A DNA stretch of 64,000 nucleotides from an uncultured Acidimicrobiaceae bacterium. GTDB lineage: Bacteria > Actinomycetota > Acidimicrobiia > Acidimicrobiales > RAAP-2. How positions within the stretch are numbered: the first letter of the stretch is position 1; each line of letters starts with the position of its first letter. A program made the translations under genes and the position numbers. Of this stretch, positions 44,244 through 59,899 are shown one piece after another. Location of the stretch: NCBI GenBank assembly GCA_963817875.1, contig CAWFPQ010000009.1:55442-119441 (forward strand), written 5' to 3'. A model generated the notes under the pieces. That model was not told the origin of the DNA. It saw only the letters and a program-made list of their open reading frames with translations, and did not search any database.

Positions 44244-44318
44244 GCGGAAGTGGCGCAGCGGTAGCGCATCACCTTGCCAAGGTGAGGGTCGCGGGTTCGA
44301 ATCCCGTCTTCCGCTCCA
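44244..44318 (+). tRNA. tRNA-Gly (anticodon GCC), CCA encoded
   Basis: Hand-folded as follows.
- Acceptor stem GCGGAAG/CTTCCGC
- D arm GCGC-AGCGGTA-GCGC
- Anticodon arm TCACC-TTGCCAA-GGTGA
- T arm GCGGG-TTCGAAT-CCCGT
- 3' end TCCA. Confidence 0.95.
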
Positions 44319-44445
44319 AACTGGGCAGGTCAGAGGTGGTTTCTATTTTCTCACGTCGCACGTAGCGAATGTCTTCGAAGCGAGAAATTCAGGGCCTCTG
44401 TGTCTTCCGCTCTCGAAGCGGTTGAGCCTGGACGGGGGCGTGTGA

Positions 44446-44817
44446 TCACCCCAGGCCGACATCCAAGAGTGCCGCACGGAGAAGGCCGTTTTCGTTTCCC
44501 CTCGCCATGATCACCTGCGCTCGAAGGACGGTGGCTGCCGCAAGAGCCTCGCGAGAGAGCAGGTTCAATCCGCGTCCGGCTCCATTGAGTTGGCTCGCCA
44601 TTGTCGGCGCTACCTCTCGCCAGTTCAACAATTCGATCCGTTCTGGTAATTGGAGCACGGCACGTAGAACGGACTCCCGGCGAATCGGAGGAAGTGACAT
44701 CAACGGTCTCGACAGTGCCCCGCCCGCTCCGCGGATGGCTGCTTGACACAAGCGCAAATACCAGCAGCCGGTGGTGACGATGCGGTCGTCAGGCCATGCC
44801 GTCTCTCCGCGCAACAA
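44446..44817 (-). CDS. PIN-domain (VapC-like) toxin candidate, start codon problematic
   Basis: It follows an AbrB-type antitoxin gene. The conserved N-terminal strand with Asp (VLIDDQ) lies upstream of the first canonical start (TTG at 44817), between that start and the vapB TAG stop. Confidence 0.5.
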   Translation of the reverse strand: MLRGETAWPDDRIVTTGCWYLRLCQAAIRGAGGALSRPLMSLPPIRRESVLRAVLQLPERIELLNWREVAPTMASQLNGAGRGLNLLSREALAAATVLRAQVIMARGNENGLLRAALLDVGLG

Positions 44818-44868
44818 GTCGGAGAGGGTCTGGTCGTCAATCAGGACAGTCAGAGTGTCGACCTGGCG

Positions 44869-45102
44869 CTACTGGTTGGCGAGCTCGGGATCTCCAAACC
44901 CAGAGCTCGCCGCTTCCCAGTCGGCGTTGCCCAGGACTGCATCGCGCACTTTGCTGAGCCCGCCGGGAACGAGCACGACTGAATCGCCAAGGTCGATCCA
45001 CCCAACGACTCCGCCTTCATCGAGGCCCCACCGGTGCCGCGTCTGGGCGGGCAATGCCATTTGGCCCCGTTCGCTCACCTTGACTTCACCTGTTTGGGTC
45101 AT
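44869..45102 (-). CDS. AbrB/SpoVT-type antitoxin (VapB-like)
   Basis: MTQTGEVKVSERGQMALPAQTRHRWGL is a SpoVT-AbrB looped-hinge-helix signature. It lies immediately upstream of the PIN gene. Confidence 0.7.
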   Translation of the reverse strand: MTQTGEVKVSERGQMALPAQTRHRWGLDEGGVVGWIDLGDSVVLVPGGLSKVRDAVLGNADWEAASSGFGDPELANQ

Positions 45103-45223
45103 GGAAACCTCACAATGCAATTTGGCTAAGTGCATTGTAGCAGGCGGCTGCAGGTTCGGAGTCGAGACGCATGCCCCATTTGAACGGGTCGAAGCCTCCC
45201 AAAAGGCTCGAAGACTCGAAGTC

Positions 45224-45270
45224 TTGACGTAGGTAGTTATGTACCATATAACTGTTACTGTGACAGTAAC
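45224..45270 (+). promoter_or_regulatory. Promoter (TTGACG-17 nt-TATAAC) and 8-bp inverted repeat GTTACTGT-g-ACAGTAAC overlapping the start of the SDR-MarR operon
   Basis: The hexamers are at 45224-45229 and 45247-45252. The predicted transcription start near 45259 coincides with the in-frame GTG at 45260, implying a leaderless mRNA. The palindrome spans 45254-45270. A second palindrome, AAGACT-cga-AGTCTT (45211-45225), overlaps the -35. Confidence 0.45.
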
Positions 45271-45991
45271 TAAAAATCCAACCGAAGTTCCGGCTCAGAG
45301 CGCTGCGGGACGAGTCCTTCTCTTCGGGGCCTCCCGTGGTCTTGGCCTCGCACTGGCCGAGGCGTGGGTCGAGGACGGCTGGCACGTCACTGCCACAGTT
45401 CGCGAGACCGGAAAGACGGCGCTCCACGAGCTGGCCGAGCGGCACCCAGCGCAGGTGGAGATCGAGACGCTCGACGTGACTAGCCAGTTCCAGATCGCCG
45501 CGCTGCGCGACCGCCTGGCCGGCAGGATGTTCGACCTCCTTTTTCATAACGCCGGCACTGCCAACCAGCCGGACGGCACTGTCGCTGAGACCTCGACCGA
45601 CGAGTTCGTCGAGGTGATGGTCACCAACGCGCTCAGCCCGCTGAGAGTCATCGAGACTTTCGAGGACTGTGTTGAGTCGACCGGAACCATCGGCGTCATG
45701 TCATCGGGGCAGGGCAGTGTGGCCAACAACACCAATGGCGGTCACGAGGTCTACCGTGGCAGCAAGGCGGCCCTCAACAGTTACATGCGCAGCTACGACG
45801 CCCGTCACCGCGGCGAGCAACGAACCCTGATCCTCATGGCCCCCGGCTGGGTCAAGACTGACCTGGGCGGACCCGATGCCCGACTTCGCATCGAGGAAAG
45901 CATCCCGGGCGTGGTCAAGGTGATCGACAGCCTCCGGGGCCAGCCCGGACTTCATTACGTCGACTACCTGGGGCAGACGGTCCCGTGGTAG
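45260..45991 (+). CDS. Short-chain dehydrogenase/reductase
   Basis: VLLFGASRGLGLALA (the TGxxxGxG variant), HNAG, and YRGSKAALN. The track start at ATG 45239 lies inside the predicted promoter spacer, so GTG 45260 is preferred. Confidence 0.8.
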   Translation: MTVTKNPTEVPAQSAAGRVLLFGASRGLGLALAEAWVEDGWHVTATVRETGKTALHELAERHPAQVEIETLDVTSQFQIAALRDRLAGRMFDLLFHNAGTANQPDGTVAETSTDEFVEVMVTNALSPLRVIETFEDCVESTGTIGVMSSGQGSVANNTNGGHEVYRGSKAALNSYMRSYDARHRGEQRTLILMAPGWVKTDLGGPDARLRIEESIPGVVKVIDSLRGQPGLHYVDYLGQTVPW

Positions 45992-46455
45992 GTGCCAGGT
46001 CTGGCGCGGTCTCGAAGGCCGTAAAGGTCCCGGCGAGTTCGGCGCAGCAGGCCTGGACCCTTCTGCGCCAGTTCGTCGATGAGCACAGTCGGCATGGCGA
46101 CCTCACAGAATCACTGGGCTTCAGCCTTGGAGCCGGGCGGGGCAAGGTCTTGTTCCAGCTGCGGACTGGACCACTGACGCACCGTCAGCTCGCTGAGCGC
46201 AATCAAACTACTGGCCCTTACATCTCGGTCATCGTCGACAAACTCGAAGAGCACGGGCTTGTCCAACGTGGTCCCCATCCCGACGACGCCCGTCGCAAGC
46301 TCGTCTCTCTCACACCAGGTGGGCTCGAAGCCATTGCCACCGCGGAAGCCATCTTGTATCGCCCGCCAGACGCCATGACCGCACTCTCGGAGAAAGAGCT
46401 GAAGCAACTAATCGACCTGGTGCAGCGCGTCCTCGACGCTGACGATGGGACCTGA
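45985..46455 (+). CDS. MarR family transcriptional regulator
   Basis: Winged-helix region LTHRQLAERNQTTGPYISVIVDKLEEHGLVQRGPHPDDARRKLVSLTPGG. It overlaps the SDR stop by 7 nt, indicating an operon. Confidence 0.85.
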   Translation: MVGARSGAVSKAVKVPASSAQQAWTLLRQFVDEHSRHGDLTESLGFSLGAGRGKVLFQLRTGPLTHRQLAERNQTTGPYISVIVDKLEEHGLVQRGPHPDDARRKLVSLTPGGLEAIATAEAILYRPPDAMTALSEKELKQLIDLVQRVLDADDGT

Positions 46456-46574
46456 GGGTCACGGCGCTCAGGGCGCTCTACTTGAGGGTGGCCGTATAGG
46501 GGCGACGCGGTTAGACGCCTGGTATGCGAGAGGGGCGTCGGAGGGACGCGAGGACCGCCAAATCGCTTCGGAAC

Positions 46575-46765
46575 GTGTAGTAGAGCGCTCCACTACAGCG
46601 GCGAACTGGATGGACGGGCTGGAAACTGGGTGGAGGGAGCCGCACGTCACGGGACGGGCGGGACCCAAACGGACGAAAACCCTCACCTTTGCCAAGGTGA
46701 GGGTCGCGGGTTCGAATCCCGTCTTCCGCTCCAAACTACCAGGTGGGAGGGTGGTTTTCAACCGC
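46575..46765 (+). repeat. att-like module A: arm + tRNA-Gly 3' part (46683-46733, one extra T in the anticodon loop) + tail
   Basis: GTAGTAGAGCGCTCCACTAC, then GATGGACGG-n13-GGTGGAGGG, then GGGACGGGCGGGACCCAAACGGACGAAAACCC. The tRNA-Gly sequence from the anticodon stem to CCA follows, then AACTACCAGGTGGGAGGGTGGTTTTCAACC. Confidence 0.85.
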
Positions 46766-46914
46766 AACGGATACCCGGCTCTGAGGATCTGAGCGGGGAG
46801 CGTTGATGCCAGAGGTCCTTCACAAACAGGGCCCTTCAGATCTGAGCGGGGCGAGCTGACGGAACGCTGCGGTTTGGACGCTTCGGATAAGTGGTCGGAT
46901 AGCGATCCAACCGT

Positions 46915-47562
46915 TCAGGTGGCGTCAACAATGCTGAAGAAGTCGAGAAGAGCGTGCGCCACCTGAACGGGTGCCTCGAGCGATGCATAGTGGCCGACGC
47001 CTTCGAGAGTCACCGATCGGACTGGAGCGGAGCTGACCTGGCTCATCGTTGCGAAGGTGAACTCGCCGCCACCAGCTCCAATCGCCAGCATCGGAATGTT
47101 CAGCTTGTGGCCGGTGACAAGAGTTGCGATCTCGTCGCCTTCGTGGAGCATGGACTGGTAGAGGCCAATCGCTCCGCGCCAGCCGTCGGGACGGGAATAG
47201 GTGCGGACGAACTCGTCGATGTCGGTGTCGGTGATCGCTCCGGGGGTGGCGCTCATGGCCGGAAAGGCGAACTGTCCGAGGAACTCGCGCTCGCGACCGG
47301 CGAGGAGCATCTCGGGGATCCCGGAGGCGGCAAGAACGCCGATGTGCCAAATACCGCCGTGGGTGACGTCCGCCAGCGCCTCAAGGCCGAACCCGGTTAG
47401 GCCCATCTCGATGGCGGTGAAGCTGAGCACATCCTCGGGGTGCGTCGCGGCGAGACGCAAGACAGTCGCCCCGCTGATGTCCTGGCCCGTGAGGTGCACT
47501 GGGCCAACGTTGAGCTCTTCGATCAGGAGGTGCAGGTCTTCGGCGGAGGATGTTTGCGGCAC
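46915..47562 (-). pseudogene. Alpha/beta hydrolase (epoxide hydrolase/dehalogenase-like, Asp nucleophile), N-terminally truncated
   Basis: It has VHLTGQDISGATV (a G-x-D-x-G elbow) and a C-terminal GVGHYASLEAP (catalytic His). It lacks the ~70 N-terminal residues carrying the HG.P oxyanion motif. The next gene starts 28 nt upstream, leaving no room for them. Confidence 0.6.
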
Positions 47563-47589
47563 TTTGAGTTGTGAGCGCTAACATCGCTC

Positions 47590-48912
47590 TTGATATTCGG
47601 GGAGAAATCCATGCTCAAGTCCGTATCGGGATCCCGACAGAAGCTGGGGACTTCGGGAAAGGCCCAGCTGGTCCTGTCTTCGGCACTGTGCGCGCTGGTG
47701 CCGACACTCGCTCTTGGCCCCGCGAATGCTTCGGCGGCTCAGGAACCGGGCGTCACGACGACCTCGATCCACGTGGGTCTGCCGTACCTCGATCTGAGCG
47801 CGCTCAAGGCGGTCGGGCTCAATCTGGACCAAGGCAGCTATCCCGACGCGTTCAACGCCCTCATTCACAATCTGAACGCGCACGGGGGCATCGACGGCCG
47901 GAAGATCGCCCTGTCCGTCGCTTCGGTCAATCCGACTTCGACTGCTTCGTCCGCCTCGGCGTGCACGCAGCTGACCCAGGACGACCACGTCTTTGTCGCC
48001 TTTGGACCCCTCTATCCGCTCTGCTACCAGGAAGCTGGGGTAACGACCATCAATGGAGACATGGACGCGTCGACATCGCCCAGCGTCGCGCCCAACTTCA
48101 CTCTGACTCCGCCGGCTTCGGCCTTCGACCCTCTGCAGATATCGGTCTATACCAAGATGGGGATTTTCAAGAACAAGAAGGTCGGTGTCATTAGTGCATC
48201 GGTGGACAAGGCCGAGGTGCCGATCGTTCTGTCCGCGCTCAAGGCGCACCACATCGACGTGGTGCAGACCGCCGTCGACTCGGCACCCCAGAACGACACC
48301 GCTGCATCGAACCAACAGATCCAAGTGATTGCGCAGCGCTTTAAACAGAGTGGCATCAACGTCGTGGTCGGAGTCGGGACCGGAGCGGTGGGTTGGGAAC
48401 AGGGCCTGAGTGACAACCAGAGCACCTATATCCCCCATCTGGTCGCTACCAATTACTCTGACTTCGCCGGCGCGGTGTCGGCGAAGGGTGGCAACAACCC
48501 CACCTATCTGAAGAACGCCATCACCGCGACCGCGGTTCCGTCTCAGCGGGTCTTCTGGAACGATCCCGCCGTTCAGAAATGCGTGAGCACGATCGAGAAG
48601 GCGTTTCCTTCGACGGTGATCGGGGACCCAATCGGTGCAGCTACCAGCGCACCAACGACTTGGGTCGCCGCGGAGAACACCTGCCAAGATTTCGCGATGT
48701 TCGTCGACATCGCGAAGGCCGCGGGCAAGCACCTCACGGCCCAGAGCTTCAAGGAAGCCGGGTATTCTCTTCGCAACGTGTCGATCCCAGGTATGGGTGC
48801 GCCGGTCTCCTTCGGGCCGAACCGGCCGTATGCAGTCGGACCGGTGTACCTGGTGACGTACGACTCCAACAAGCATCAGATGGTCATTGCGGACAAGGCA
48901 ACGAGCGCATAA
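47590..48912 (+). CDS. ABC transporter substrate-binding protein, branched-chain amino acid (LivJ/Peripla_BP_6) type
   Basis: Signal peptide (LVLSSALCALVPTLALGPANASAAQ), then GVTTTSIHVG...GGIDGRKI...DHVFVAFG, typical of type I periplasmic binding proteins. The start could also be the ATG at 47611. Confidence 0.8.
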   Translation: MIFGEKSMLKSVSGSRQKLGTSGKAQLVLSSALCALVPTLALGPANASAAQEPGVTTTSIHVGLPYLDLSALKAVGLNLDQGSYPDAFNALIHNLNAHGGIDGRKIALSVASVNPTSTASSASACTQLTQDDHVFVAFGPLYPLCYQEAGVTTINGDMDASTSPSVAPNFTLTPPASAFDPLQISVYTKMGIFKNKKVGVISASVDKAEVPIVLSALKAHHIDVVQTAVDSAPQNDTAASNQQIQVIAQRFKQSGINVVVGVGTGAVGWEQGLSDNQSTYIPHLVATNYSDFAGAVSAKGGNNPTYLKNAITATAVPSQRVFWNDPAVQKCVSTIEKAFPSTVIGDPIGAATSAPTTWVAAENTCQDFAMFVDIAKAAGKHLTAQSFKEAGYSLRNVSIPGMGAPVSFGPNRPYAVGPVYLVTYDSNKHQMVIADKATSA

Positions 48913-48997
48913 CGACGCAGCAGCTGTCGTGCGCCCTTGAAACAGAACCGCCTGGCGCTGCCGGGTCGGCGTGGATCGAGCAGACGCAGCCGTCGGA

Positions 48998-49657
48998 TTA
49001 AGGACCGAGAAGGGCAGCGACGACGAAGTCCGCGAGATCGTCGATGAGGGTGTCGGCCGACGAGGTCCACGGTTGGAACTGACTCATGAACGTGACGCTG
49101 CCCAGGACGGTCGGAAGTAGGTGACTCCGTCTGAGCACGCGTTCTGGGGCGTCGCCTGACTCGACGGCTCGTTGAAGGGTGTTGGCGATGATCGCTTCCC
49201 ACTCTCGCTCACGCTTGACGAATCGTTCCTCTGCTCGGGGATTGGCGTCTACTTCCGCGAGGAGCGCGGGAAAAGCCGCACGGGTGGCCGGATCCGAAAG
49301 GTAGGCCATGTTCCGGCGTATGAGCTCGCGGAGATCGGATTTGAGTGAGCCCGTCGGGAAGTGCGCCGAGGGCTCGGCGCTCAGAGGATCGTCGCCACCC
49401 AGGATGGCTGCTGCCGCCATCTCGGCCTTCGTGTCCCAACGCCGCGCAATGGTCCTTACGTGAACCCCGCTGCGCTGGGTCACCTTGTTCGCGCTCAAGG
49501 CCTGATAGCCCTCTTCGGCGAGGAGCTCCCTCACCGCCTGCAGGATGGTCGAGTCGAGTTCGGCGTTGCGCGGCCTCCCTGGATCCCGGTCGATCTGGGT
49601 CTCGTCTGCGGCAGTAGGCACCAGGTCAGCGTACAAGTTCGGCGTATTTAGTGCCAA
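48998..49657 (-). CDS. TetR family transcriptional regulator
   Basis: ILQAVRELLAEEGYQALSANKVTQRSGVHVRTIARRWDTK is the HTH region. Confidence 0.85.
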   Translation of the reverse strand: MALNTPNLYADLVPTAADETQIDRDPGRPRNAELDSTILQAVRELLAEEGYQALSANKVTQRSGVHVRTIARRWDTKAEMAAAAILGGDDPLSAEPSAHFPTGSLKSDLRELIRRNMAYLSDPATRAAFPALLAEVDANPRAEERFVKREREWEAIIANTLQRAVESGDAPERVLRRSHLLPTVLGSVTFMSQFQPWTSSADTLIDDLADFVVAALLGP

Positions 49658-49754
49658 GGGTTTGGCACTAACTCGGCATGTTCGATATGGTTGCGGACGT
49701 CAGGGCGACGCTGTGTTTGCGCTCGTTGGCGTGGTGGGGACGCGAAGGAGGTCC

Positions 49755-50987
49755 ATGACAGACAAGGTGGCGATCATCTCGGTGGACGGGCACGTCAAGC
49801 CGGCACGGCACGTGTATCTCGATTACATCGACCCGGCATTCCGCCAGGAGCTCTCGGCGGACGTGGGGATTCTCGAGGGATCACCCGACGGCTTCGTCCA
49901 CCCGACCCTGGGCGAGCCCTGCCAGTGGGACGCGGCGCGTCGTGTCCGGGATCTCGAATCACAAGGAGTGGTGGCGGAGGTCCTCTTCCCCAACGGACAA
50001 GCCTTCGAAGGAGCCAGCCTCGACCACTCTCCCGACCCCGGACGGTCGCGGGCCTCGAACATGGCGTACAACCGTTGGCTCATCGACTTTTGCTCCGAGG
50101 CGCCGGGACGATTCTGCGGGCTCGCCGCGATCGACTTCGACGACGTCGAGCAAGCCATCGCCGACGTGCACTGGGCGAAGGAGAACGGCCTGGGGGGTGT
50201 GCTCATGCCGCCCCTGCATCCGAACGCAAAGTTCTTCTTCGACCCGGCGCTCGATCCGGTGTGGGCGGCCTGCCAGGAGACCGGCCTCCCGCTCGGTCAA
50301 CACGGTGGTACTGGCTCGCCCAAGTACGAGCCCCAGAGCTTCGCATCGTTCATGGTGCTGGCCACCGAGCATTCCTTCTTCTCAGGTCGCTCCCTCTGGC
50401 AGCTCATTCTCGGCGGCACCTTCGATCGTTTCCCGGAACTGAAGATCGCCTACATCGAGACGGAGCAGTGGTGGCTGGGACCGGTCATGGATCTCCTTGA
50501 CCGACGCGAGCAGATGGGCGACGACTGGACTGACTTCGCGGAGACGCTCCGGCGGGTCAAGCCGTACAAGAACCTGCCGAGTGACTACTGGAGCTCGAAC
50601 TGCTTCATCGGCCTCTCGCCGTTCACCACCGAACAGATCGAACTCGACCGGTTCGGATCGGCGAGTCGCAGCGAGGCGACTGGGTTCGCGATCCGGTGCG
50701 ACAACTCGATGATAGGAGTGGATTACCCGCATCCCGAGACCGTCTACCCCGGGCTGCTCCGCCAGGTGAAGGTGCTCGTGGACCACCCGGGCGTAACGGA
50801 GGATGAGGCCCGGAAGGTCCTGTATGGGAACGCCGCGCAGCTTTTCGGTTTCGACCTGGCGGCGCTCGATGCGGATATCGATCGCGCCGGATTCCGCCTC
50901 GATGACATTCCCGAACCGGAGCAGGACAGGATGCAGCTGACGTCCCTCTTCGAGGTGGCGTCAGTCTCGCGCCTCACTCCCGATTGA
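49755..50987 (+). CDS. Amidohydrolase-2 (ACMSD/metal-dependent hydrolase) family protein
   Basis: ATG preceded by GAAGGAGG. The sequence has IISVDGHV (an HxH-like metal site start), WLIDFCSEAPGRF, GLPLGQHGG and GVDYPHPE. Confidence 0.8.
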   Translation: MTDKVAIISVDGHVKPARHVYLDYIDPAFRQELSADVGILEGSPDGFVHPTLGEPCQWDAARRVRDLESQGVVAEVLFPNGQAFEGASLDHSPDPGRSRASNMAYNRWLIDFCSEAPGRFCGLAAIDFDDVEQAIADVHWAKENGLGGVLMPPLHPNAKFFFDPALDPVWAACQETGLPLGQHGGTGSPKYEPQSFASFMVLATEHSFFSGRSLWQLILGGTFDRFPELKIAYIETEQWWLGPVMDLLDRREQMGDDWTDFAETLRRVKPYKNLPSDYWSSNCFIGLSPFTTEQIELDRFGSASRSEATGFAIRCDNSMIGVDYPHPETVYPGLLRQVKVLVDHPGVTEDEARKVLYGNAAQLFGFDLAALDADIDRAGFRLDDIPEPEQDRMQLTSLFEVASVSRLTPD

Positions 50988-51029
50988 ACCCTGACGGCCG
51001 TCGCGACGTGCGACGAGATCAGGCGCCGT

Positions 51030-51215
51030 TCAGAGTTGTGCCCACACGGTCTTGTTCTTGAGGTAGCCGTCGATGCCCTCCTGGCCGTTCTCGTAGTCCC
51101 ACCGGACTGCTTGAACCCACCGAAGGGTAGCGACCTTCGGGAGGGAGGTGATAGTCGAGCGGTCGGATGAGCTGAACGATGAAGTCGCCGCGTAGTCCGT
51201 CAGATTCTCATCCAC
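51030..51215 (-). pseudogene. Aldehyde dehydrogenase C-terminal remnant (frameshifted)
   Basis: One frame gives PFGGFKQSG and the adjacent frame gives WDYENGQEGIDGYLKNKTVWAQL-stop. Together these form the canonical ALDH C-terminus. Nothing of the first ~400 residues is present. Confidence 0.5.
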
Positions 51216-51224
51216 AGGTCTTGA

Positions 51225-51434
51225 CTATTTCTCGTCGGTAACCAGACCGCCGACGTACATCGATTCAACTTCAGCCTCGTGGGCGCGTGACTCTTCAGCG
51301 GAGAGCTTTAGACCGATCCTCCCATTCGGCATCACGAGAACACGATTGGCGACCATCTCTGCGTAACGCAGATGCTGTTCAACCACTATTACGGCACGTC
51401 CACACTGTGCGTATTCAGAGATAGCGCCGAACAA
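51225..51434 (-). pseudogene. ABC transporter ATPase C-terminal remnant (LivF/LivG-like)
   Basis: RAVIVVEQHLRYAEMVANRVLVMPNGRIGLKLSAEE...MYVGG matches the H-loop to C-terminus part of branched-chain amino-acid ATPases. Walker A, the signature motif and Walker B are absent. Confidence 0.5.
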
Positions 51435-51438
51435 ACGA

Positions 51439-51600
51439 TCACAGACCGGCGATGGCCAGCCCGTCGAGGTCGTTGTAGGCGTTCATCACGGTGACCAGGC
51501 CAGCCTCCTGAATGGCGGCGCGGAAGGGCACTGCGTCGACGTCGCGGAGCTGACGCTGCGGTGTACCAACGTCAACGGTCGACGGCTGCGAGCCCCGCTG
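51439..51600 (-). pseudogene. Possible glycoside hydrolase family 3 fragment
   Basis: PFRAAIQEAGLVTVMNAYNDLDGLAIAG resembles the GH3 F..AI.AG...VM.AYN..NG segment. The fragment is short and the call is weak. Confidence 0.3.
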
Positions 51601-51606
51601 GGCCGG

Positions 51607-51795
51607 ATAGTAGAGCGCTCTACTACGAGGAACGACCAAGTGGACGGGCTGGAAACTGGGTGGACGGAGCCGCACGTCACGGGACGGGCGGGACCCAAAC
51701 GGACGAAAACCCTCACCTTGCCAAGGTGAGGGTCGCGGGTTCGAATCCCGTCTTCCGCTCCATCGCAGCAGGTCAGAGGCGGTTTTTCACCTGCC
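51607..51795 (+). repeat. att-like module B: arm + exact 50-nt copy of the tRNA-Gly 3' part (51713-51762) + tail
   Basis: A perfect 18-nt palindrome TAGTAGAGCGCTCTACTA comes first, then AGTGGACGG-n13-GGTGGACGG. The rest of the arm is nearly identical to module A. The tail is TCGCAGCAGGTCAGAGGCGGTTTTTCACCTGC. Confidence 0.9.
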
Positions 51796-52025
51796 GACCT
51801 GAGGGACGCACCTCGACTCAGGTGCACGAAACCTTTCTTGAAATGTGCGGCGCGCGCCAACCCTTGGGCCACGGTTGCGAGGGATTGCTGAATCTCGGCT
51901 TCAGGCTCCACGTCAGTCGCTGGCGTCAATGGAACTCCTCCGCCGCAACCGCCAGCACGCGAAATTCCGGGTTTCTCGACAAGGCCGCACCTGACCGAGA
52001 ATGTTGTCCAGTCGTGCGATTCGCA

Positions 52026-52990
52026 CTAGAGGGTTTCAGCAGCGTGGCGAGCGACCTTGGCATAGAGATCTTCGAGGAGTAACCGAGTATCGAGTCGCCG
52101 AAAGATCCGAAGTGGCGGTCCTAGGTGCATAGCGTCGTAGCGACCAGAGTCGAGCATCCGATATCGAGGTCGTTCGACCCACTCGCACGACGAAGGGCTT
52201 GGGTCGAAGCTGGTGAGGAGCGCTGAAAGCAGGACTAGGGGAGAGTCTCCCAGTACGAATGTCTCGCCAATCATCCAGCCGAGCGCTTGCATTTCGTGGG
52301 CAACCACGTCGACTGACTTGAAGAGGTGCTCACCCAACGAGCCTCGCGGCTCCATGCGTGCCAGAAGCTCGCTGCGAGAGACGAGAACCTGCTTATAGGC
52401 ATCTCGCGGGACCTGCCAAAGATCGAGAGCCGAGACATTGAACACGAATTGCGCGGCCACGATGTCGATACTGGTGTTTGTACTCCACAGCCAAGGCGCT
52501 TGGGGTTGGTTCAGCCAAGTCTTCGTATTCACGTCCACCGATCCATACAAGCGTCAGATGATCCGCGATACGCGGCTCCATGAGCCACGCTGAGGCAATG
52601 TTCGTGAGAGATCCACCGCAGACGACGATCAGCTGAGAGTCGGTGTCGTCGCGGATGGCTTCTTCGATGATCGCTTCGGCCGCCGGCGTCTTTCGCGGTT
52701 TGGTGATGCTGGACAACACCTCATTTGATCCGGCAATGACGGGCACGTCGTTCCGTCCGGCGAGAGCTGCCACTTTGCGTGCCGCAGCCGCAGAATCGTA
52801 CGCACAGGTCGGCGACCACGACGGGTCATAGGCCGCCACCTGGCCACCAATGACGAAACGGATATCTGTGCTCAGGCTGAGTAGATGGTGTGCGAGCTGC
52901 ACCAATCCGTCGGGATCGCCGAGTAGTCGTTGTCGGAGATAACGCGCACTCGAGGGGCGATCAGTCCGCTACACCGCGCAGGATCCATCA
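52026..52990 (-). pseudogene. Nucleoside hydrolase-like protein, at least two frameshifts
   Basis: The pieces are MMDPA...RVRVISDNDYS | GDPDGLVQLAHHLL...LIVVCGGSLTNIASAW...LTLVWIGG | ...STNTSIDIVAAQFVFN.... They lie in three different frames (track ORFs 52393..52905 and 52026..52550, plus an unlisted N-terminal piece). Confidence 0.55.
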
Positions 52991-53009
52991 TCGGCCTCCT
53001 TTCCTTCGC

Positions 53010-53615
53010 TCACCCCTCAGGCGCCTGTGCCTCGAGCGTGAGTGGTCTGAGGTACGAGAGGTCCCGACGGTCACGTGTTCCGCGAGGGTAGCCCTGGTCT
53101 TGGAACGGTTCGCTCTGTAGCAATGACGCATCGGCCGTGAACATGAGCTCGACCGTCGAGCGCCTTACCGCGATCTTCCAAATACCGTCGCGTCGCTCCA
53201 ATCGGTCGATGTAACGGCCGCTGATCACGCGTGCGGTGACGCCATCATGGTTGAGGAGGCACACGAGCACGTAACTCTCGCAATGGGCGGTATCGTGGTC
53301 GATGTCGCACATGTGAGTAGTGATGTTGTGGGTGTGGGCCTGTGATCCGGCGGCGTGGACGGGATTGATCCACCCCGCATACTTGGGTCCGGAGTTGACG
53401 GCCTTCCCGTGTTCATCGACCCCGTCGGGATGGTAGGCCCTCGTGAGGAGGTCCGCGTCGTGCCGGTCGTGCCCACGGCTGTGCTCCGAGATGCAGTCGA
53501 GGATTGCGCTGCGATCCATCAGATATCGGACGTCGCGGCGAAGCTGATCGAGTTCGTCGTCGTTGCTCACGATGGTCGGACCTTTCCCCAGTGAAGTGAC
53601 TGTCCGCGCTGTCAT
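53010..53615 (-). CDS. SnoaL-like/NTF2-fold family protein
   Basis: LRRDVRYLMDRSAILDCISEHSRGHDRHDADLLTRAYHPDGVDEHG...GRYIDRLERRDGIWKIAVR is the typical SnoaL_4 pattern. Confidence 0.65.
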   Translation of the reverse strand: MTARTVTSLGKGPTIVSNDDELDQLRRDVRYLMDRSAILDCISEHSRGHDRHDADLLTRAYHPDGVDEHGKAVNSGPKYAGWINPVHAAGSQAHTHNITTHMCDIDHDTAHCESYVLVCLLNHDGVTARVISGRYIDRLERRDGIWKIAVRRSTVELMFTADASLLQSEPFQDQGYPRGTRDRRDLSYLRPLTLEAQAPEG

Positions 53616-54034
53616 CGGTCGAGAATCTGGCCGTAGATATGCTCGGCGTGAAGCTCGACCCCCATCCGGTGGCTGGCCACCATGTCCTCGCCGAAGCCGT
53701 CGCGCTCCGACGCCGCTCCCAGTGCGACGTGGATTTCGAACAGTTTCTCGACGGCGTCATCATCAGGTTCCAGGGCCACGGCCAACGAAGCGGGGCCAGC
53801 CACGACCGCGAAGTTGAAGAAGTCTTGACCAGGCACATGGAGCGACGCCCGGGGGTCACGCAAAAGATTGCGGCCCTTGATGCGATGGGTCGTCGTCGAG
53901 AACCGGATCCGCTGGGTTGAAGGGTGTACCAGGTAGAAGATGTTCGACAGCTGTGGGACGCCGTCTTCTCCGATGGTGGCGAGGATTCCTTTGCGCTCGT
54001 CGGCGATGATCTCCCAGAGTCGCTCTGTCGTCAT
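53612..54034 (-). CDS. Pyridoxamine 5'-phosphate oxidase family (F420/FMN-binding split-barrel) protein
   Basis: From MTTERLWEIIADERKGILATIGEDGVPQLSNIFY...K.RNLLRDPRASLHV. Confidence 0.75.
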   Translation of the reverse strand: MTTERLWEIIADERKGILATIGEDGVPQLSNIFYLVHPSTQRIRFSTTTHRIKGRNLLRDPRASLHVPGQDFFNFAVVAGPASLAVALEPDDDAVEKLFEIHVALGAASERDGFGEDMVASHRMGVELHAEHIYGQILDR

Positions 54035-54137
54035 ATTGGGCTGGTCCTCCAGGCGGATCAATCGGGGACAGGCGCGGTCAGTGATCCAGACGCTCCGGCC
54101 CGCTGCTCGTGATGGTTTGGCTTTCCAGTTTGTCTCG

Positions 54138-54755
54138 TTACGTCTTTCGTTGCTTTTTGGACTTCCCCGAAGGTGGTTCCGCGACGTCAAGGAACTTCTC
54201 GATGGCGTTCAACGCTTCAGCATGCGTCGTCGAGATACCGACGCCCTCCTCGAGGCGGATCAACCTCGGAGTCCCCGTCAAGAAGAAGAGCAATGCCTCG
54301 GGGGTGAGCCGACCGATTTCGATCTCCTCCTCCCCAAACGCGGCATAGAGTGCCTCCAGCTGGGTGCGCCGGACCCGCTCGGTCACCTCGGCGATCTCCG
54401 ATCGGACTGAGGGTCGGTGATTGCCGAGCGCGAGGAATTCGGTGGTGAGAGCCGAATTCGACTCTTCTTGGCTGTATGACCAGAGCACGCGTAGCGGTTC
54501 GCCCTCGCTGGCGTATAGCGCCTCGGTCAGCCGTTCGACATTCTGTCCCGCCCGCCTTCGAATAACCGCGAGGAAGAAATCGTCATGGTTTGGGAAGTAG
54601 TACTGGACCGAGCCTGCGGTCATACCTGCGGCCGCAGCCACGGCGCGATAGGTCACGCTCGCATACCCCGACTTGACCATCAGCCGCTCCACGCAGTCGA
54701 GTAAGAGATCCCATGTCTTAGATGTCGCCGCGCCATCTCGTCGGGGCGAAGTCAT
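54138..54755 (-). CDS. TetR family transcriptional regulator
   Basis: From MTSPRRDG. The HTH region is LLDCVERLMVKSGYASVTYRAVAAAAGMTAGSVQYYFPNHDDF. Confidence 0.85.
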   Translation of the reverse strand: MTSPRRDGAATSKTWDLLLDCVERLMVKSGYASVTYRAVAAAAGMTAGSVQYYFPNHDDFFLAVIRRRAGQNVERLTEALYASEGEPLRVLWSYSQEESNSALTTEFLALGNHRPSVRSEIAEVTERVRRTQLEALYAAFGEEEIEIGRLTPEALLFFLTGTPRLIRLEEGVGISTTHAEALNAIEKFLDVAEPPSGKSKKQRKT

Positions 54756-55198
54756 GTGCACCTCATTGTTCTGAAGGCGTGATTGAGGAAGTTGCTTTGT
54801 CGTGCGAGCCGGCATTTCTTCCGGCGCTCGCGTCCTTACAAGGACTCTGACGATGCGCCTCCGGCTGGCCAAGCCGCCAAAGACACATGGTTTGCGCTGT
54901 GGCGGCGACCTTCGTGGGGGGCTTGTCTCGGTGGGTGAGCGCTGTCGGAGCCCACGTTCTTGGGCGCACGCGGCTGGTGGCATCTCCAGCGCTCGCCGAC
55001 GGTCCCGGATTACTGGCCATCCCCATCTCCCATCACGCCCTTTACGTGGACCCCTTACACCTGTATGGTATACCTACCTTACATATGTAAGGCCGACGGC
55101 GATCTGGCTGATCCGTCAGGGAACTGAAGTTGGGTGACGACGCCGATGTCCCATTCTCGATAGGGGTGCGGTGGTGGCGTTCTTGAACGATTGAGGGG

Positions 55199-57367
55199 GT
55201 GGCTGTGAGGAACGAACACAAACGGCTGGAAGTCAAGGCTGGCCAAGGGCGTCACAAGAGACTGTTCAGCGATCAGCGCCGCCGATTGTCCAGAATCGCC
55301 ATGCTCGTCGTGGGGGCGGTGATGGTCGCAACATTGGCTCCGGCCGTGACCTCCTCGGTCTCAGCGACGACGCCGGCTCCCACGCTTCCCACTTGCCAGC
55401 CGTCAATGCCAGGTGGCCCTGTGTTCATCACGGCCGACTGCGTCGATCCGGTCTTGAACCAGCCCTACGTTGACATCGAACAGCCAGGGACAATGACCGA
55501 CCCGACCACGGGCGTGACGGTGAACTTCACTTACGTCCACGGCGGGTTCACGGGAACCACCACCAAGTTCGCGTTCTACTTTCCGTCGGCAAATCAGTAC
55601 GAGGGGCGATTCTTCGAGACCACCTACCCGACACTCGGTCAGGAAAACGCGGCAACGGACTGTCCATCGGTGGGAACCTCGGTCTGCTCTGTCGTGTTCG
55701 CCATCTCGAATGGCGCCTATGTCGTCTCGAGTAACAACGCAGGCGGCGTACCGGCGGGCGGGGCAGTCGCCCCCTACCGGGCTAACGCGGCATCGGCCAT
55801 GTATTCCCGGGTCGTGGCCCGCCAGATCTACGGCAACTCCATCCCCAGTCCCCGGGGTTACCTCTACGGTGCCAGCGGTGGCGCCTACCAGACGGTCGGG
55901 TCCATGGAGAATACGAGTGGGGTGTGGCAGGGGGCGGTACCTATGGTCTTCGGTGTCCCGAACGCCATCCCGAGCTTCATGACGGCCGAACTACTTGCTC
56001 TCAGGGTGCTCGGACCCGTGCTGCCACAGATCGCCGACGCCGTGGCACCCGGCGGGAGCGGCAACCCCTACGCCGGACTCAGCCCCGATCAGCAGGCGGT
56101 GCTCCACGAGGTCACGGACCTCGGGTTCCCGCTCCGGGGCTGGTGGCAATACGCCACCCTCAACGGCGGCGGGTTCTTAGCCGTGGAGGGTGCTGTCCGA
56201 GCGATCGATCCCACCTACGTCACAGATTTCTGGACCCAGCCGGGTTACGAGGGCAGCCAGCCGGCGGTCCAGGCTGCTCGAATCCAGTACGCCACGACAG
56301 TCATCAGCCTCTCCGGCACGAGCGGACTTGTCCTTGCCAACGTGCCTGCAGGGGACTTGATCAATGCGGATCTTGACATCGCAAGCGGTTCTCTTGCCGG
56401 TCAGACCATCCCGATCGAGTCCGTGAGTGGCAACACCGTCGAGCTCGCTGGGAGCAACTCGGGGATCACACCGGGCACGAACGTGGAGCTCGACAACTCT
56501 TGGTTGATCGCAATGCAGTACTACCAGCGTCACCAGGTGCCCACACCTGACGAGTACGGGTGGAACCAGTACCGCGCCCCAAACGGTCAGCCGCTCGAGC
56601 CGCAGCGACCCCTCCTGATCGGACCGCTCTTGACGGAGAGCACCGCCGGCTCGATCCCAGACGGGCACTTCTACGGGAAGATGATCATGCTGGGGTCGAC
56701 CATGGACGTCCAGGCGTACCCGTGGAGCGAGGACTGGTACCGCAACCAGGCCGAGGGCGCATTGGGAGCGAGCTTCCGGAGCAGCTATCGAATCTGGTAC
56801 ATGGATAACGCCGATCATGACCCGGAGGGTCCGGCAGCGACTACGGCTGATGACGCCAGCGATCACATCGTCGCCTACTCGGGTGAGGCGGAGCAGGCTC
56901 TGCTCGACCTCGATGCGTGGGTCGCGCATGGAGTTCAACCCCCGGCCAGCACGAACTACCGGATCGATTCGAACGACCAGGTTCAGTTGCCGCCGATCGC
57001 CGTCGCACGCAACGGCGTTCAGCCGGTGGTCGGCCTCTTTGCCGACGCGAGAGGAAGTCTCCCCTCCTCGAACCGGATCGACGTGAAGGCCGGCCAACCT
57101 GTCAGCTTCCTAACTGTCGCGCAGGCTCCACTGGGCGGCGGCTGCATCGTGAAGGCAGAGTTCGATCCGCAGGGCTCGGGGACCTTCCCCGACAGCATGC
57201 CAATACACCACGTAGGCCCAGTTGAGATACTCGGTGATTCATTTACCTACTCAACTCCTGGTACCTACTTCCCAGTCGTGCGGATCACCTCGAATGCCAA
57301 CTGTGATCCGAACGCGGTGTACGCGCTGATCCAAAATCTCGCCAGCGTGCGCGTGGTCGTCCACTAG
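55199..57367 (+). CDS. Large secreted protein, possible alpha/beta-hydrolase (GASGG elbow)
   Basis: Signal/anchor segment IAMLVVGAVMVATLAPAVTSSVSA, with non-repetitive sequence throughout. YGASGGAYQ is a G-x-S-x-G candidate. I cannot assign a family. Confidence 0.65.
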   Translation: MAVRNEHKRLEVKAGQGRHKRLFSDQRRRLSRIAMLVVGAVMVATLAPAVTSSVSATTPAPTLPTCQPSMPGGPVFITADCVDPVLNQPYVDIEQPGTMTDPTTGVTVNFTYVHGGFTGTTTKFAFYFPSANQYEGRFFETTYPTLGQENAATDCPSVGTSVCSVVFAISNGAYVVSSNNAGGVPAGGAVAPYRANAASAMYSRVVARQIYGNSIPSPRGYLYGASGGAYQTVGSMENTSGVWQGAVPMVFGVPNAIPSFMTAELLALRVLGPVLPQIADAVAPGGSGNPYAGLSPDQQAVLHEVTDLGFPLRGWWQYATLNGGGFLAVEGAVRAIDPTYVTDFWTQPGYEGSQPAVQAARIQYATTVISLSGTSGLVLANVPAGDLINADLDIASGSLAGQTIPIESVSGNTVELAGSNSGITPGTNVELDNSWLIAMQYYQRHQVPTPDEYGWNQYRAPNGQPLEPQRPLLIGPLLTESTAGSIPDGHFYGKMIMLGSTMDVQAYPWSEDWYRNQAEGALGASFRSSYRIWYMDNADHDPEGPAATTADDASDHIVAYSGEAEQALLDLDAWVAHGVQPPASTNYRIDSNDQVQLPPIAVARNGVQPVVGLFADARGSLPSSNRIDVKAGQPVSFLTVAQAPLGGGCIVKAEFDPQGSGTFPDSMPIHHVGPVEILGDSFTYSTPGTYFPVVRITSNANCDPNAVYALIQNLASVRVVVH

Positions 57368-57734
57368 GACGCGGAGCGCTCATTTCGCTGCTGGATGTCG
57401 CGAGCCAAAGACCTTCGGATGAAGTCGCGTGGCCCAAAAGCCGGCGTGCTTCTTCGGAGTTCTTTGCTTGCCTGCGAGAGATTCATTCGCCCTCTCTGTC
57501 GAGGCGCCGACTGGGGTGAAGACTCTTGGTTTCAGCTTGGCCTCAGGTCGGGGGCATCGATTGAGCGAAGTGGAAGGTCGCCGGTTTCGTATCTGGTTCA
57601 CTCGTCTCGCCGAAGACGAAACAGATTCACTCCGGGACGGATCGATGCCTTCGATCGCGCCAGCCCCAGAGAGCCCAACGGAAAAGCGCGGGAGCCCGAC
57701 AACGGTCGCAGTGCGACTGGGACGGCTCTCAGCG

Positions 57735-57920
57735 ATAGTAGAGCGCTCTACCACAGGGGCGGACCCAATGCAGGGGGTTCAAACTGGGTGGACGGAACCG
57801 CACTTCACGGGATCCGCCAGACCCAGACAGACGAAAACCCTCGCCTTGCCAAGGTCAGGGTCGCGGGTTCGAATCCCGTCTCCGGCTCCTACAGCAGTAC
57901 CAGATAGAGGCGGTTCAACC
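57735..57920 (+). repeat. att-like module C (most diverged): arm + tRNA-Gly 3' part with 5 mismatches (57841-57890) + tail
   Basis: ATAGTAGAGCGCTCTACCAC...AAACTGGGTGGACGGAACCGCACTTCACGGGA...GACGAAAACCCTCGCCTTGCCAAGGTCAGGGTCGCGGGTTCGAATCCCGTCTCCGGCTCCT, followed by ACAGCAGTACCAGATAGAGGCGGTTCAACC. Confidence 0.85.
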
Positions 57921-58038
57921 ACCCACGAACTGTCCAGTCGCTGGGCAGAGTGCCGCACCCACGAGTTCGCCGCGCACGCGATCTCAATCCCATGGTCGAG
58001 GCTATGCCTGAGAATCGACGGCAATCTCGGCAACTTCC

Positions 58039-59295
58039 TCAGGGTATCGGGAAGAGACCATTTACGAAGTCGTTGCGAAACTTGAAGGTCGGGTCGTACT
58101 CAACCATCAAGCGTTCGAAATCGGGAGCCCGCTCGTAGGAGGTGATGACCTCACGCGGGGACATCGTCGTGAGTTTGCCCCAGTGAGGCCGTGGATCGAG
58201 CGGCAACAACTGCTCTTCAATGGCCGCGAGGGCAGACAACGCCGCCGATTCATTGGCAGTCCAAGTGAAATGGAATGTGACGGAGTCCCGACCGTAGGCG
58301 GGGCTCAACCAGAGGTCATCCGAACAGACCGTACGCATCTCGCTGATGAGCAATTCCGGCGCAATGAGGCTACCGATCTCGCGGAGCGCGGAGATGGCCT
58401 CTCGTGCAACGTGACGTGGCAGGAAGACCTCTGATTGCAACTCATTTCCCGCTCCAGGACTCGGTTTGGGGCGGAAGTGTGCCAACCGCTCATGCCAAGG
58501 GCCGACCACCCCCAACTGCTCCGTGCATAGGTCCGGCGACATGCCAGGCACCGGATGGACGGTGTGTTGTGCGTGCCTGCCGGCGGACCAGGTCAACGCG
58601 CGCTGATCAACTCGACGCTTGAGCCATACGCTGGCCTCACCGCTACACCAATCGGTGAACGCGCTCACGCTATAGCCCGCGCTGAACAAGTCATCCAGTC
58701 CGTCCTCTATCTCATCGAGGGGAACGCCGAGGTGAACCTGTTGCGACATCTCGTACGCTGGCTCGATATCCAAGGTCAGATGGGTCACGATGCCAAGAGC
58801 ACCGAGAGCGACCACCGAGCCACGAAAATTGTCTCGATCGAGATCTCGCCTCAACTCGAGCAGGTCCCCGTCCGCGAGGACCAGCTTCATTGCGGCGACG
58901 GAGTCGGCGAGAACGCGTTGAGCATCGCCAGAACCGTGGGTGCCAGTTGCGCAGGCCCCGGCGATCGAGATGTCGGGGATCGAGGCCATATTCGATAACG
59001 CGAAACCTGCTCGAGACAACGCTTCGGCCAGATCGGTGTAACTCATGCCGGAAGCCACTGTCACCGTGGAATTAGTCGGATCGATGGTGAGCGTTTTGGG
59101 CAGATTGTCCAAAAGCACCGAATCGCCGGTGGTGTCAGCAATTCCGCTGAAGGAGTGGCCACGGCCAAGAGCTCGCATTTGTTTTCCGCCATGGACAATC
59201 CGGCGAAGGCTGTCGACCGATTCGGGCTTGTGTACTTGCGCGGCACCAAAGATGACGTTCCCAGCCCAGTTAGTGGCGGATACGTCGTGGCCCAT
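58039..59295 (-). CDS. FAD-binding oxidoreductase, D-arabinono-1,4-lactone oxidase/alditol oxidase family
   Basis: NWAGNV...P.S...L...V.......RALGRGHSFS (FAD_binding_4) and the C-terminal PHWGK motif of the ALO domain. Confidence 0.85.
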   Translation of the reverse strand: MGHDVSATNWAGNVIFGAAQVHKPESVDSLRRIVHGGKQMRALGRGHSFSGIADTTGDSVLLDNLPKTLTIDPTNSTVTVASGMSYTDLAEALSRAGFALSNMASIPDISIAGACATGTHGSGDAQRVLADSVAAMKLVLADGDLLELRRDLDRDNFRGSVVALGALGIVTHLTLDIEPAYEMSQQVHLGVPLDEIEDGLDDLFSAGYSVSAFTDWCSGEASVWLKRRVDQRALTWSAGRHAQHTVHPVPGMSPDLCTEQLGVVGPWHERLAHFRPKPSPGAGNELQSEVFLPRHVAREAISALREIGSLIAPELLISEMRTVCSDDLWLSPAYGRDSVTFHFTWTANESAALSALAAIEEQLLPLDPRPHWGKLTTMSPREVITSYERAPDFERLMVEYDPTFKFRNDFVNGLFPIP

Positions 59296-59369
59296 TTGCC
59301 TGCCAGGATCACTGTAAGAACCGATACCTGCCGAAGTTAGCTCGCCGTTTCACGTATTCGGCACATGCT

Positions 59370-59470
59370 GCTCAGCCGTCCCTCGCCTCCCTTGACGGCT
59401 GCTTGGTTCCAAAGTAGGTCGAACGCAACGCAGCCATGGCGGCGATCATCGCCACTGCACAGCCTTCTCA
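59370..59470 (-). pseudogene. C-terminal fragment of a TetR gene paralogous to 61072..61737
   Basis: The minus-strand frame gives AVAMIAAMAALRSTYFGTKQPS, compared with STVAMIAGMAALRSTYFGTKQPS in the intact gene. DNA at 59397-59453 is near-identical to 61142-61198. Confidence 0.5.
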
Positions 59471-59810: not shown

Positions 59811-59899
59811 CCTGCGGGGGAGTGAGGGCTCATCGGACTTCAGCGGGACAGCCGTTCGACGTCACCGCTGGACGTTGCCGCGCAGTCTCAGGGGGTCAC

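Follow-up and report, generated by a model that had tools for sequence, protein, structure and literature searches.

Copies of an attachment-site-like unit separate gene modules lacking an integrase behind a tRNA-Gly gene in uncultured Acidimicrobiaceae

Results

The DNA studied here is a stretch of 64,000 nucleotides (nt) from an uncultured Acidimicrobiaceae bacterium (assembly GCA_963817875.1, contig CAWFPQ010000009.1, positions 55,442 to 119,441), referred to below as the window. It holds an intact tRNA-Gly(GCC) gene on the plus strand at 44244-44318 (ARAGORN; 71.1 bits against the Rfam tRNA model), with a trailer that extends to about 44342, and, downstream of this gene, four copies of a unit of about 190 nt that contains the 3′ part of the same tRNA. 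That unit, and in particular its second copy (unit B), is the subject of this report. A 22-nt probe from the T arm matched five times on the same strand, in the intact tRNA and at 46702, 51731, 57859, and 59745, and never in shuffled sequences. When units A to D are aligned with the intact gene, identity to the tRNA begins at the anticodon stem. Upstream of this point the units have about 105 nt in common that the intact tRNA gene lacks, and downstream about 25 nt past CCA are alike in all five copies. Directly after tRNA-Gly, the G+C content falls from about 0.71 to about 0.62 (9 points), and it stays low through the window end. Direct repeats of the tRNA 3′ part thus bound foreign DNA beside an intact tRNA, which is how attachment (att) sites are recognized. 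We propose the intact gene as the integration target (attB, or the current attL).

All four units lie on the plus strand and were detected with nhmmer. Unit A (46576-46770; 173 bits) has its palindrome at 46578-46595, followed by the arm, the core and tRNA 3′ half at 46680-46733, and the trailer; it carries one additional T in the anticodon loop. Unit B (51606-51795; 173.7 bits) is a complete att-like site, and its tRNA part is identical to the intact tRNA-Gly. Unit C (57734-57920; palindrome at 57736-57753, tRNA part at 57838-57890) is the most decayed copy within the window, and in unit D (59622-59810; palindrome at 59624-59641, tRNA part at 59724-59776) GC has changed to AT in the T stem. 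We followed the array sequence for about 10 kb beyond the window end on the source contig (ENA ERZ25039470 contig_28151, reached through the P450 gene), where a fifth unit (E) lies at about window coordinate 69723-69884.

The order of elements within the unit is an 18-bp palindrome, an arm of about 105 nt, an 8-bp inverted repeat that encloses the 7-nt anticodon loop, the tRNA 3′ half, and a trailer of about 25 nt. The palindrome, TAGTAGAGCGCTCTACTA, marks the outer edge of the arm at 51608-51625. The copy in unit B is perfect, and those in A (46578), C (57736), and D (59624) each contain a single mismatch, as an earlier note on this DNA had described; no such match is expected by chance. Each copy lies about 125 nt upstream of a match to the T-arm probe. 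Across all array loci the palindrome was found only within units, and none of its substitutions is compensated. It may serve as the binding site of a dimeric accessory protein. The earlier note had also described about 125 nt shared by the four partial copies. A common arm is indeed present, but it measures about 105 nt (51606-51709).

A variable spacer (51626-51640) separates the palindrome from a series of phased direct repeats on the plus strand (51641-51709): TGGACGG at 51641, TGGAAAC at 51651, TGGACGG at 51661, GGGACGG at 51681, GGGACCC at 51690, and CGGACGA at 51700. The first three, in 10-nt steps and followed by GCCGCAC, form a repeat block at 51641-51674. The two TGGACGG copies (51641-51647 and 51661-51667) are exactly 20 nt apart, in agreement with the earlier note, although the repeat motif is richer than had been recognized there; GGGACGG (51681-51687), ACGGACG (51699-51705), and the anticodon stem extended to 8 bp also lie where the earlier note had placed them. 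The block is followed by a variable stretch (51675-51699), which usually holds GGGACGG or a GGATC/AGATCT variant, and by a junction, CGGACGAAAA, at 51700-51709. Among 18 units from 10 genomes, GGAC/TGGA motifs occupy positions -86, -76, -66, -56, -36, -27, and -17 relative to the anticodon loop, in a 10-bp register, with GGAC at -76, -56, -36, -27, and -17 recurring in most units. The orientation of the motif is always the same, and none of the 18 units has an inverted copy. The phased repeats are putative arm-type sites for an integrase, an excisionase, or both.

The putative core (51710-51732, plus strand) consists of CCCTCACC at 51710-51717, the anticodon loop TTGCCAA, and GGTGAGGG at 51725-51732. 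The inverted repeat around the loop is perfect over 8 bp, compared with a symmetry of only 5 bp in the intact tRNA, and CCC at its left end is kept in 14 of 16 aligned units. Inverted sites of 8 bp around a 7-nt spacer are the usual core geometry of tyrosine recombinases in lambda-type systems, and by sequence geometry the core has the expected pair of inverted binding sites around an overlap region of 6 to 8 bp. It is followed by the variable loop, T arm, acceptor 3′ strand, and CCA of the tRNA (51733-51762) and by the trailer (51763-51795), whose consensus is near TCGTAGCAGGTCAGRGGCGGTTTTTCAAC and which is common to intact tRNA-Gly genes and the attP regions of phages L5 and D29. The copies differ by single-base indels in A and D, which agrees with the earlier judgment that the unit is noncoding. 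A side observation concerns the acceptor 3′ strand: in three genomes, a copy of it, (GT)CTTCCGCTCCA, is duplicated directly after a unit, with gaps of 1, 4, and about 29 nt (L018 at about 7060-7090, minus; L021 at 1420-1450, plus; L007 at 6334-6374, minus).

Conservation, calculated as mean pairwise identity among 18 units, is organized in blocks. Identity is 0.24 in the left flank, 0.92 in the palindrome, 0.64 in the first spacer, 0.84 in the repeat block, 0.62 in the variable stretch, 0.81 in the junction, 0.95 in the tRNA part, 0.45 in the trailer, and 0.19 in the right flank. The edges of the unit are therefore sharp: flanking DNA is at the random level of 19 to 24%, against 92% in the palindrome. 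The earlier note had reported a conserved downstream tail of about 30 nt. This tail does lie behind the intact tRNA here and behind intact tRNA-Gly genes in other genomes, but its conservation is moderate (0.45 over 28 nt in 18 copies). Spacer lengths are fixed among units, and indels are rare. Conserved blocks at fixed distances with free sequence between them form the pattern of a set of protein-binding sites and fit the P arm and core of a tyrosine recombinase att site.

Variation within the tRNA-derived part changes abruptly at the loop. In the left stem half together with the first two bases of the loop, variation is 5.6%, compared with 0.9% in the other loop bases plus the right stem half (Fisher test, P = 0.007) and 2.4% in the remaining tRNA part. 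Such a step is expected if the right side is copied from the live tRNA and the left side is brought by the element, and it would place the crossover in the anticodon loop. The arms do not group by genome; the nearest neighbor of an arm is often from another species, and no pair exceeds 89% identity. These relationships fit independent arrival of modules from a shared pool.

The unit is not confined to the window. The earlier note had suggested an alignment with homologues from other genomes, and such homologues exist. A scan of species-representative genomes with the junction pattern yielded ten loci, all from uncultured Acidimicrobiaceae metagenome-assembled genomes (MAGs) of the Microflora Danica project. 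Nine hold a full unit; in the tenth (L026), the unit is split by an insertion sequence (IS). An nhmmer profile search of these and later loci brought the number to 22 units in 10 species-level Acidimicrobiaceae genomes, besides one arm-only fragment and one relic. Where a locus has two units, they are on the same strand, 2 to 5 kb apart. Outside the units, the loci have no DNA longer than 250 nt in common and no recurrent protein, and a wider blastn comparison found only a few orthologous segments (about 93% identity). The flanking genes are again metabolic or regulatory. Also encoded in the relatives' loci are two IS transposases (one from the IS that splits a unit) and, shortly behind a unit, a group II intron reverse transcriptase; one unit is truncated.

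Several of these copies are unusual in structure. In L026, the split unit (3693-3786 and 5442-5525), an orthologue of unit E, is interrupted at arm position ~90 by a 1.66-kb IS (DDE_Tnp_1_4; 3962-5398, minus), and a paralogous transposase of 36% identity lies at 5766-7229. In L014, the group II intron reverse transcriptase/maturase (2554-4344, minus) begins about 200 nt downstream of a unit whose usual trailer is replaced. The arm-only fragment, in L021 (5112-5209), runs from the palindrome to about position 100 and passes, without core or tRNA part, into unrelated sequence.

Searches in other collections did not find the unit. In phage and plasmid records, blastn matched only the tRNA part, except that the L5/D29 attP also matched the trailer. 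Scans of viral contigs with four patterns gave nothing or chance matches, and all 22 matches in a scan of Joint Genome Institute (JGI) metagenome contigs were due to chance. The unit family is thus without a match in the phage, plasmid, viral-contig, metagenome, and Rfam collections searched.

Through the methyltransferase gene that precedes the tRNA, we reached the tRNA-proximal 8 to 10 kb of nine relatives. In every relative whose DNA was read, the sequence behind tRNA-Gly is variable and often rich in ISs, which marks the locus as a hotspot. Two units lie directly downstream of tRNA-Gly in L065, where tRNA 3′ repeats again bound the DNA beside the intact copy. In MFD05521 (L060 joined to L013), the first unit lies 10.5 kb downstream of tRNA-Gly, and in L062 a decayed relic of a unit lies 3 kb from it; five other relatives have no unit within 8 to 10 kb. 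L061, L064, and L066-L068 are among the unit-free relatives. At the distal end of the MFD05521 array, L018 1-3293 matches (92.6%) the genes beside tRNA-Gly in the array-free L061. The latter locus shows a different kind of duplication, in which the whole tRNA-Gly gene occurs in tandem (8687-8761 and 9779-9853) around an AT-rich insert of about 0.9 kb, together with about 60 nt upstream and about 90 nt downstream. The closest relative, L064, is 92.8% identical over 11 kb of core sequence. Homology stops at 44342, 24 nt past the tRNA, and the L064 island is entirely different in content from that of the window. Unit E and its preceding genes, in contrast, have orthologues in L026 (92.8% identity), so that arrays are in part inherited and in part replaced.

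The DNA between the units forms modules that are multigenic, use both strands, and have their own TetR or MarR regulators. Module 1 (44343-46575; about 2.2 kb) contains only cargo, including a short-chain dehydrogenase (45239-45991, plus). By Pfam, module 2 (46771-51605; about 4.8 kb) encodes an alpha/beta hydrolase, a periplasmic binding protein, TetR, and an amidohydrolase and also holds gene fragments. Module 3 (51796-57733; about 5.9 kb) has open reading frames (ORFs) of SnoaL-like and MarR type, PNPOx, TetR, and a secreted protein of 720 amino acids, and module 4 (57921-59621; about 1.7 kb) has an FAD/ALO-type oxidase (58039-59295, minus). Module 5 starts at 59811, continues past the window end at 64000, and extends for about 9.9 kb to unit E at ~69723; its genes include a DAP dehydrogenase (a diaminopentanoate-dehydrogenase-like protein), TetR, an AveC-like protein, P450, and others. 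Solute-binding proteins are also part of the array cargo. Across arrays, modules measure 2 to 16 kb and carry metabolic and regulatory cargo without a recombinase. The oxidase module (57841-59274) has a 76%-identical counterpart in L064 (6885-8341), directly beside tRNA-Gly. It is fourth in the window array and tRNA adjacent in L064, so similar cargo occupies differing array positions. The 720-amino-acid ORF, which lies upstream of unit C, was considered as a novel recombinase; it has a signal-peptide-like N terminus and no Pfam match and was assigned to the cargo.

We searched for an integrase with Pfam on large ORFs and 64 leftover ORFs, with PHROGs on 98 ORFs from 10 MAG loci and 70 upstream ORFs, and in precomputed Pfam annotations for L049, L051, and L060-L068. 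The matches were only IS transposases, the group II intron reverse transcriptase, and one XerC-like gene in L064; none is a cognate integrase within an element beside its att site. Cargo genes start about 100 to 300 nt from trailers and arms, so each unit leaves no room for a lost integrase. TraB, relaxase, and ParB genes were not seen in the arrays. We conclude that the modules look integrase-less by nature.

Two recombinase genes deserve mention. The XerC-like gene (L064 589-1611, minus) lies beside an IS256-type transposase, and its close homologues (70 to 89% identity) are nearly all on contigs of 1 to 5 kb, as would be expected of a multicopy mobile element at which assemblies break. It was considered as a trans-acting integrase and dropped, as no homologue lies on an array contig. 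On a 34,030-nt contig with P0124 from JGI sample 3300047160, an island downstream of tRNA-Gly encodes a 387-amino-acid tyrosine integrase (Phage_int_SAM_3 and Phage_integrase) beside an AEP-TOTE/DEAD primase-helicase, 8 to 10 kb from the tRNA. This pair is the only candidate seen for an autonomous element at the tRNA-Gly locus.

Three further features of the window were recorded. A 92-nt ″tRNA-Ala(ggc)″ called by ARAGORN at 31906-31997 (minus) was unconfirmed at the Rfam gathering score and is probably a false call. Coding repeats of about 123 to 126 nt (26680-27370, minus), inside a long minus-strand ORF (26516-28825), and a 141-nt tandem duplication (35007-35288) are unrelated to the units.

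Discussion

We consider it probable, although far from certain, that the unit is a complete att site and that the array has grown by tandem accretion of integrase-less modules served by a recombinase encoded elsewhere. The site would be of the complex, lambda/L5-like tyrosine recombinase type. A circular module carrying arm, core, tRNA 3′ half, and trailer would recombine with the anticodon loop of tRNA-Gly(GCC). On the left, the host would contribute the 5′ half and the element the 3′ half and trailer of a rebuilt tRNA, and the arm would be pushed to the right, together with the old tRNA 3′ half, at each insertion. Successive insertions would give a head-to-tail array in which each internal junction combines the arm of the left module, the core, and the trailer of the right module and is attP-like, and the tRNA 3′ part of each unit would descend from a previously intact tRNA. 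The phased repeats may bind the arm-binding domain of the integrase, a winged-helix excisionase, or both, and the outer palindrome may bind a dimeric accessory factor. In lambda, Xis binds X1, X1.5, and X2, head-to-tail sites about 10 bp apart, and the TGGACGG-TGGAAAC-TGGACGG triplet of the unit has the same layout. As the modules are without a recombinase, the integrase and any excisionase must come in trans, either from a rare autonomous relative or from a gene elsewhere in the chromosome. The earlier note had proposed that the arm is the recombinase-bound P arm of related elements. Block-wise conservation with fixed spacers, the phase and single orientation of the motifs, the core geometry, low-G+C inserts beside an intact tRNA, and recurrence with unrelated cargo make the P arm the best-supported reading, but the search results replace ″related elements″ with modules that have no integrase of their own.

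Several observations weigh against this model. An integrase gene or fragment is absent from about 140 kb of arrays, from 44 kb upstream, and from both ends of the MFD05521 array; nor did the fetched loci or the collections of phages, plasmids, viral contigs, and metagenomes yield an autonomous element with this arm. Excised circles, empty sites, and polymorphism within a population were not seen, and what points to recombination is indirect: island content differs past the trailer between genomes with a 93% identical core. The orthologous unit E and L026 unit differ about as much as their flanks (92.8%), so chromosomal copies may not be under selection, and the distal copies C, E, L009b, and L024b are visibly decaying. 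Finally, the model leaves unexplained how one 190-nt site became joined to so many cargos.

The arrangement as a whole would be a variation on a known theme, namely, tRNA-targeted site-specific accretion. The closest parallel is with cis-mobilizable elements (CIMEs), att-flanked elements without an integrase, such as the ICESt1/ICESt3-related islands of Streptococcus thermophilus and pathogenicity islands of Streptomyces (PMC5704250). As in CIME accretion, a single target gene is followed here by elements in head-to-tail order, with att sites that contain the gene end between them, and the att-flanked members lack genes for integration and transfer and would be expected to be mobilized by the integrase of a related element. 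Unlike the situation for CIMEs, every module seen (about 20 in 10 genomes) is integrase-less and no autonomous relative is in view, be it an integrative and conjugative element (ICE), an integrative and mobilizable element (IME), or a phage with the same att site. The modules are also small (2 to 16 kb) and hold pure metabolic or regulatory cargo, and the whole site of about 190 nt (arm, core, and trailer) is kept with sharp edges and is not the remnant of a larger conserved backbone.

The anatomy of the site recalls that of actinobacteriophages. Their attP sites, including those of cluster K, normally have pairs of direct arm-type repeats on the flanks of a common core (PMC3203893). The L5 and D29 attP sites, too, target tRNA-Gly, have a common core made of the tRNA 3′ end and trailer, and carry arm-type direct repeats on either side of the core. 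D29 even has the trailer motif CAGGTCAGAGG(T/C)GGTTTTT in common with the units. In contrast, the arms are unrelated (GCGACCTT-like repeats as read from the D29 sequence, TGGACGG here), tRNA identity starts at the T arm in D29 and at the anticodon stem here, and the integrase and excisionase genes that flank the D29 attP have no equivalent here. The motif follows CCA in the window at 51763-51790 and 44319-44342 and in the D29 attP (L059) at 1229-1250. It is common to units, to intact tRNA-Gly of several Acidimicrobiaceae, and to the L5/D29 attP region, and 244 Mycobacterium phage records match the T arm and trailer. Conservation of the trailer across two actinobacterial classes suggests that it has been spread or maintained by integrative elements that target tRNA-Gly.

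Tycheposons, which build islands in Prochlorococcus, provide another precedent for tandem integrations with partial tRNAs as separators (10.1101/2020.12.28.424599). In both cases, integrations at a tRNA push older elements inward, partial tRNAs separate the cargo, and the result is a hypervariable, tRNA-seeded island. Tycheposons, however, encode a tyrosine recombinase along with a replication module, and fragments of integrases occur in their islands; none of these features was seen in any of the arrays whose DNA was read, and an integrase with a primase-helicase was present only in the island of the P0124 contig. Their att repeat is about 40 nt long, compared with 190 nt and a conserved arm here.

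Integrons are similar in that modules without a recombinase form a one-directional array, each module ending in a recombination site, with content that varies between close relatives. Group II introns occur at attC sites, and one adjoins a unit in L014. Nevertheless, none of the defining integron features that we tested was found. The platform of intI, attI, and Pc is not beside the array; a methyltransferase and a WS/DGAT gene lie upstream, and 44 kb contain no recombinase. What is conserved in the sites is the sequence and not a structure, and reading them as imperfect hairpins is unsupported. The modules are multigenic, occur in both orientations, and have their own regulators, whereas integron cassettes are mostly single, promoterless, one-way ORFs. 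Other systems rely on a recombinase encoded elsewhere: integrative mobile elements exploiting Xer (IMEX) at dif and the pdif modules of Acinetobacter are recombinase-less and Xer dependent and can pile up in tandem. However, dif-like sites are 28 bp long, with no arms and no tRNA, and nothing dif-like is present here. A more ambitious interpretation is that the tRNA-Gly locus is a working, integron-like cassette platform, at which a trans-encoded tyrosine recombinase captures, excises, and reshuffles multigene cassettes. This we regard as possible but doubtful. Equally tentative is its corollary that the cassettes share only the attP-like site of about 190 nt and that the array is a maintained metabolic gene reservoir, not a graveyard.

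A graveyard is what the array would be if the units were fossil scars, that is, nonfunctional attR junctions of once-complete, integrase-bearing elements that have since decayed. The degenerate state of units C, E, L009b, and L024b and of the L062 relic speaks for this view, as do the unit split by an IS and the truncated one, the divergence of orthologous units at the rate of their flanks, and the ceiling of 89% identity between arms, which means that there has been no recent burst. A review model, moreover, derives CIMEs from ICEs and IMEs by decay (PMC5704250). On the other hand, none of the about 20 modules retains an integrase gene or fragment, cargo so close to trailers and arms leaves no space for a remnant, and twenty independent clean losses are improbable. 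The tRNA part of unit B is still identical to the live tRNA, and island content is wholly different between genomes with a 93% identical core. We therefore think it unlikely that the units are only scars of decayed elements.

Sites acting in cis for transfer or partition were also considered. The repeats could be clt-like and recognized by a TraB/FtsK-type translocase, as in the TraB/clt recognition-repeat system of Streptomyces plasmids, or the palindrome could be parS- or oriT-like, in either case mobilizing integrase-less modules. The direct, 8-mer-like repeats in a single orientation and the strongly conserved terminal palindrome, found only in units, are compatible with this, and movement between cells would require a cis site in modules that have no transfer genes. 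Against it, the repeats abut the core in a strict 10-bp register, as arm sites do, the arrays lack TraB, relaxase, and ParB genes, and the motif matches no recognition sequence that we can name. A primary role of this type is, in our view, improbable.

The earlier note had raised the alternative that the unit is transcribed as a structured RNA of about 190 nt with a tRNA-like 3′ domain. Folding gives it some encouragement. The minus strand folds better than shuffled sequences (z = -3.5) and the plus strand marginally so (z = -1.9), and RNAalifold predicts a palindrome hairpin, a lengthened anticodon stem, and a long helix in which the arm pairs with the T-arm/acceptor strand, with 94.8% of cells paired. 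However, double changes occur in only 3 of 40 pairs, the covariation term is +1.1, and about two-thirds of the changes in paired columns break the pair, so the proposed covariation check on aligned homologues did not favor an RNA; the alignment has little power to detect covariation. It did exceed its shuffle control (2 to 3 of 500), but related sequences can do so without structure, and the control is not a probability. The arm-tRNA duplex is matched by 355 of 1,000 dinucleotide shuffles with RNA parameters and by 301 of 1,000 with DNA parameters; its energy is ordinary because a G-rich arm faces a C-rich strand. An attC-like hairpin, or an RNA helix joining arm and tRNA 3′ strand, was accordingly rejected, being predicted by RNAalifold and yet no better than with shuffled arms, and an apparent covarying pair in the CACGTC...GGACG region does not hold across copies. 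Substitutions in the palindrome are uncompensated, the variable segment has no conserved fold, and there is no promoter-like site for the unit. At gathering and permissive thresholds, Rfam returned no family except tRNA, below threshold (26.9 bits against a gathering score of 29), in keeping with the earlier failure to recognize a known RNA family. Neither a structured RNA nor an attC-like folded single strand finds support in these comparisons, and we regard an RNA as very improbable. The chance that the unit is a tRNA-derived nonautonomous transposon, similar to a miniature inverted-repeat transposable element or a short interspersed nuclear element, is negligible: it is short, noncoding, multicopy, and sharply bounded, but it has a palindrome at one end only instead of terminal inverted repeats, generates no target-site duplications, and occurs in one orientation, in one array, beside its parent tRNA, with no copy elsewhere in the 64-kb window or in the nonarray parts of the fetched loci.

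The significance of the accretion of integrase-less modules depends on how they move. If the arrays are only decayed scars, the locus is a tRNA-linked genomic island of the common type, although an uncommonly tidy one. In either case, the unit is an example of a complete arm-and-core att site without an identified integrase, and the trailer in common with the attP of mycobacteriophages L5 and D29 may reflect an ancient connection among the tRNA-Gly-targeting systems of Actinobacteria. If the modules truly rely on a recombinase encoded elsewhere, they would add to integrons and Xer-dependent modules a second way in which bacteria collect recombinase-less cassettes at one chromosomal address. 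The cassettes would then be whole small operons with their regulators, in an abundant uncultured soil lineage, and the unit would provide a 190-nt sequence tag with which this accessory gene pool may be mined from metagenomes.

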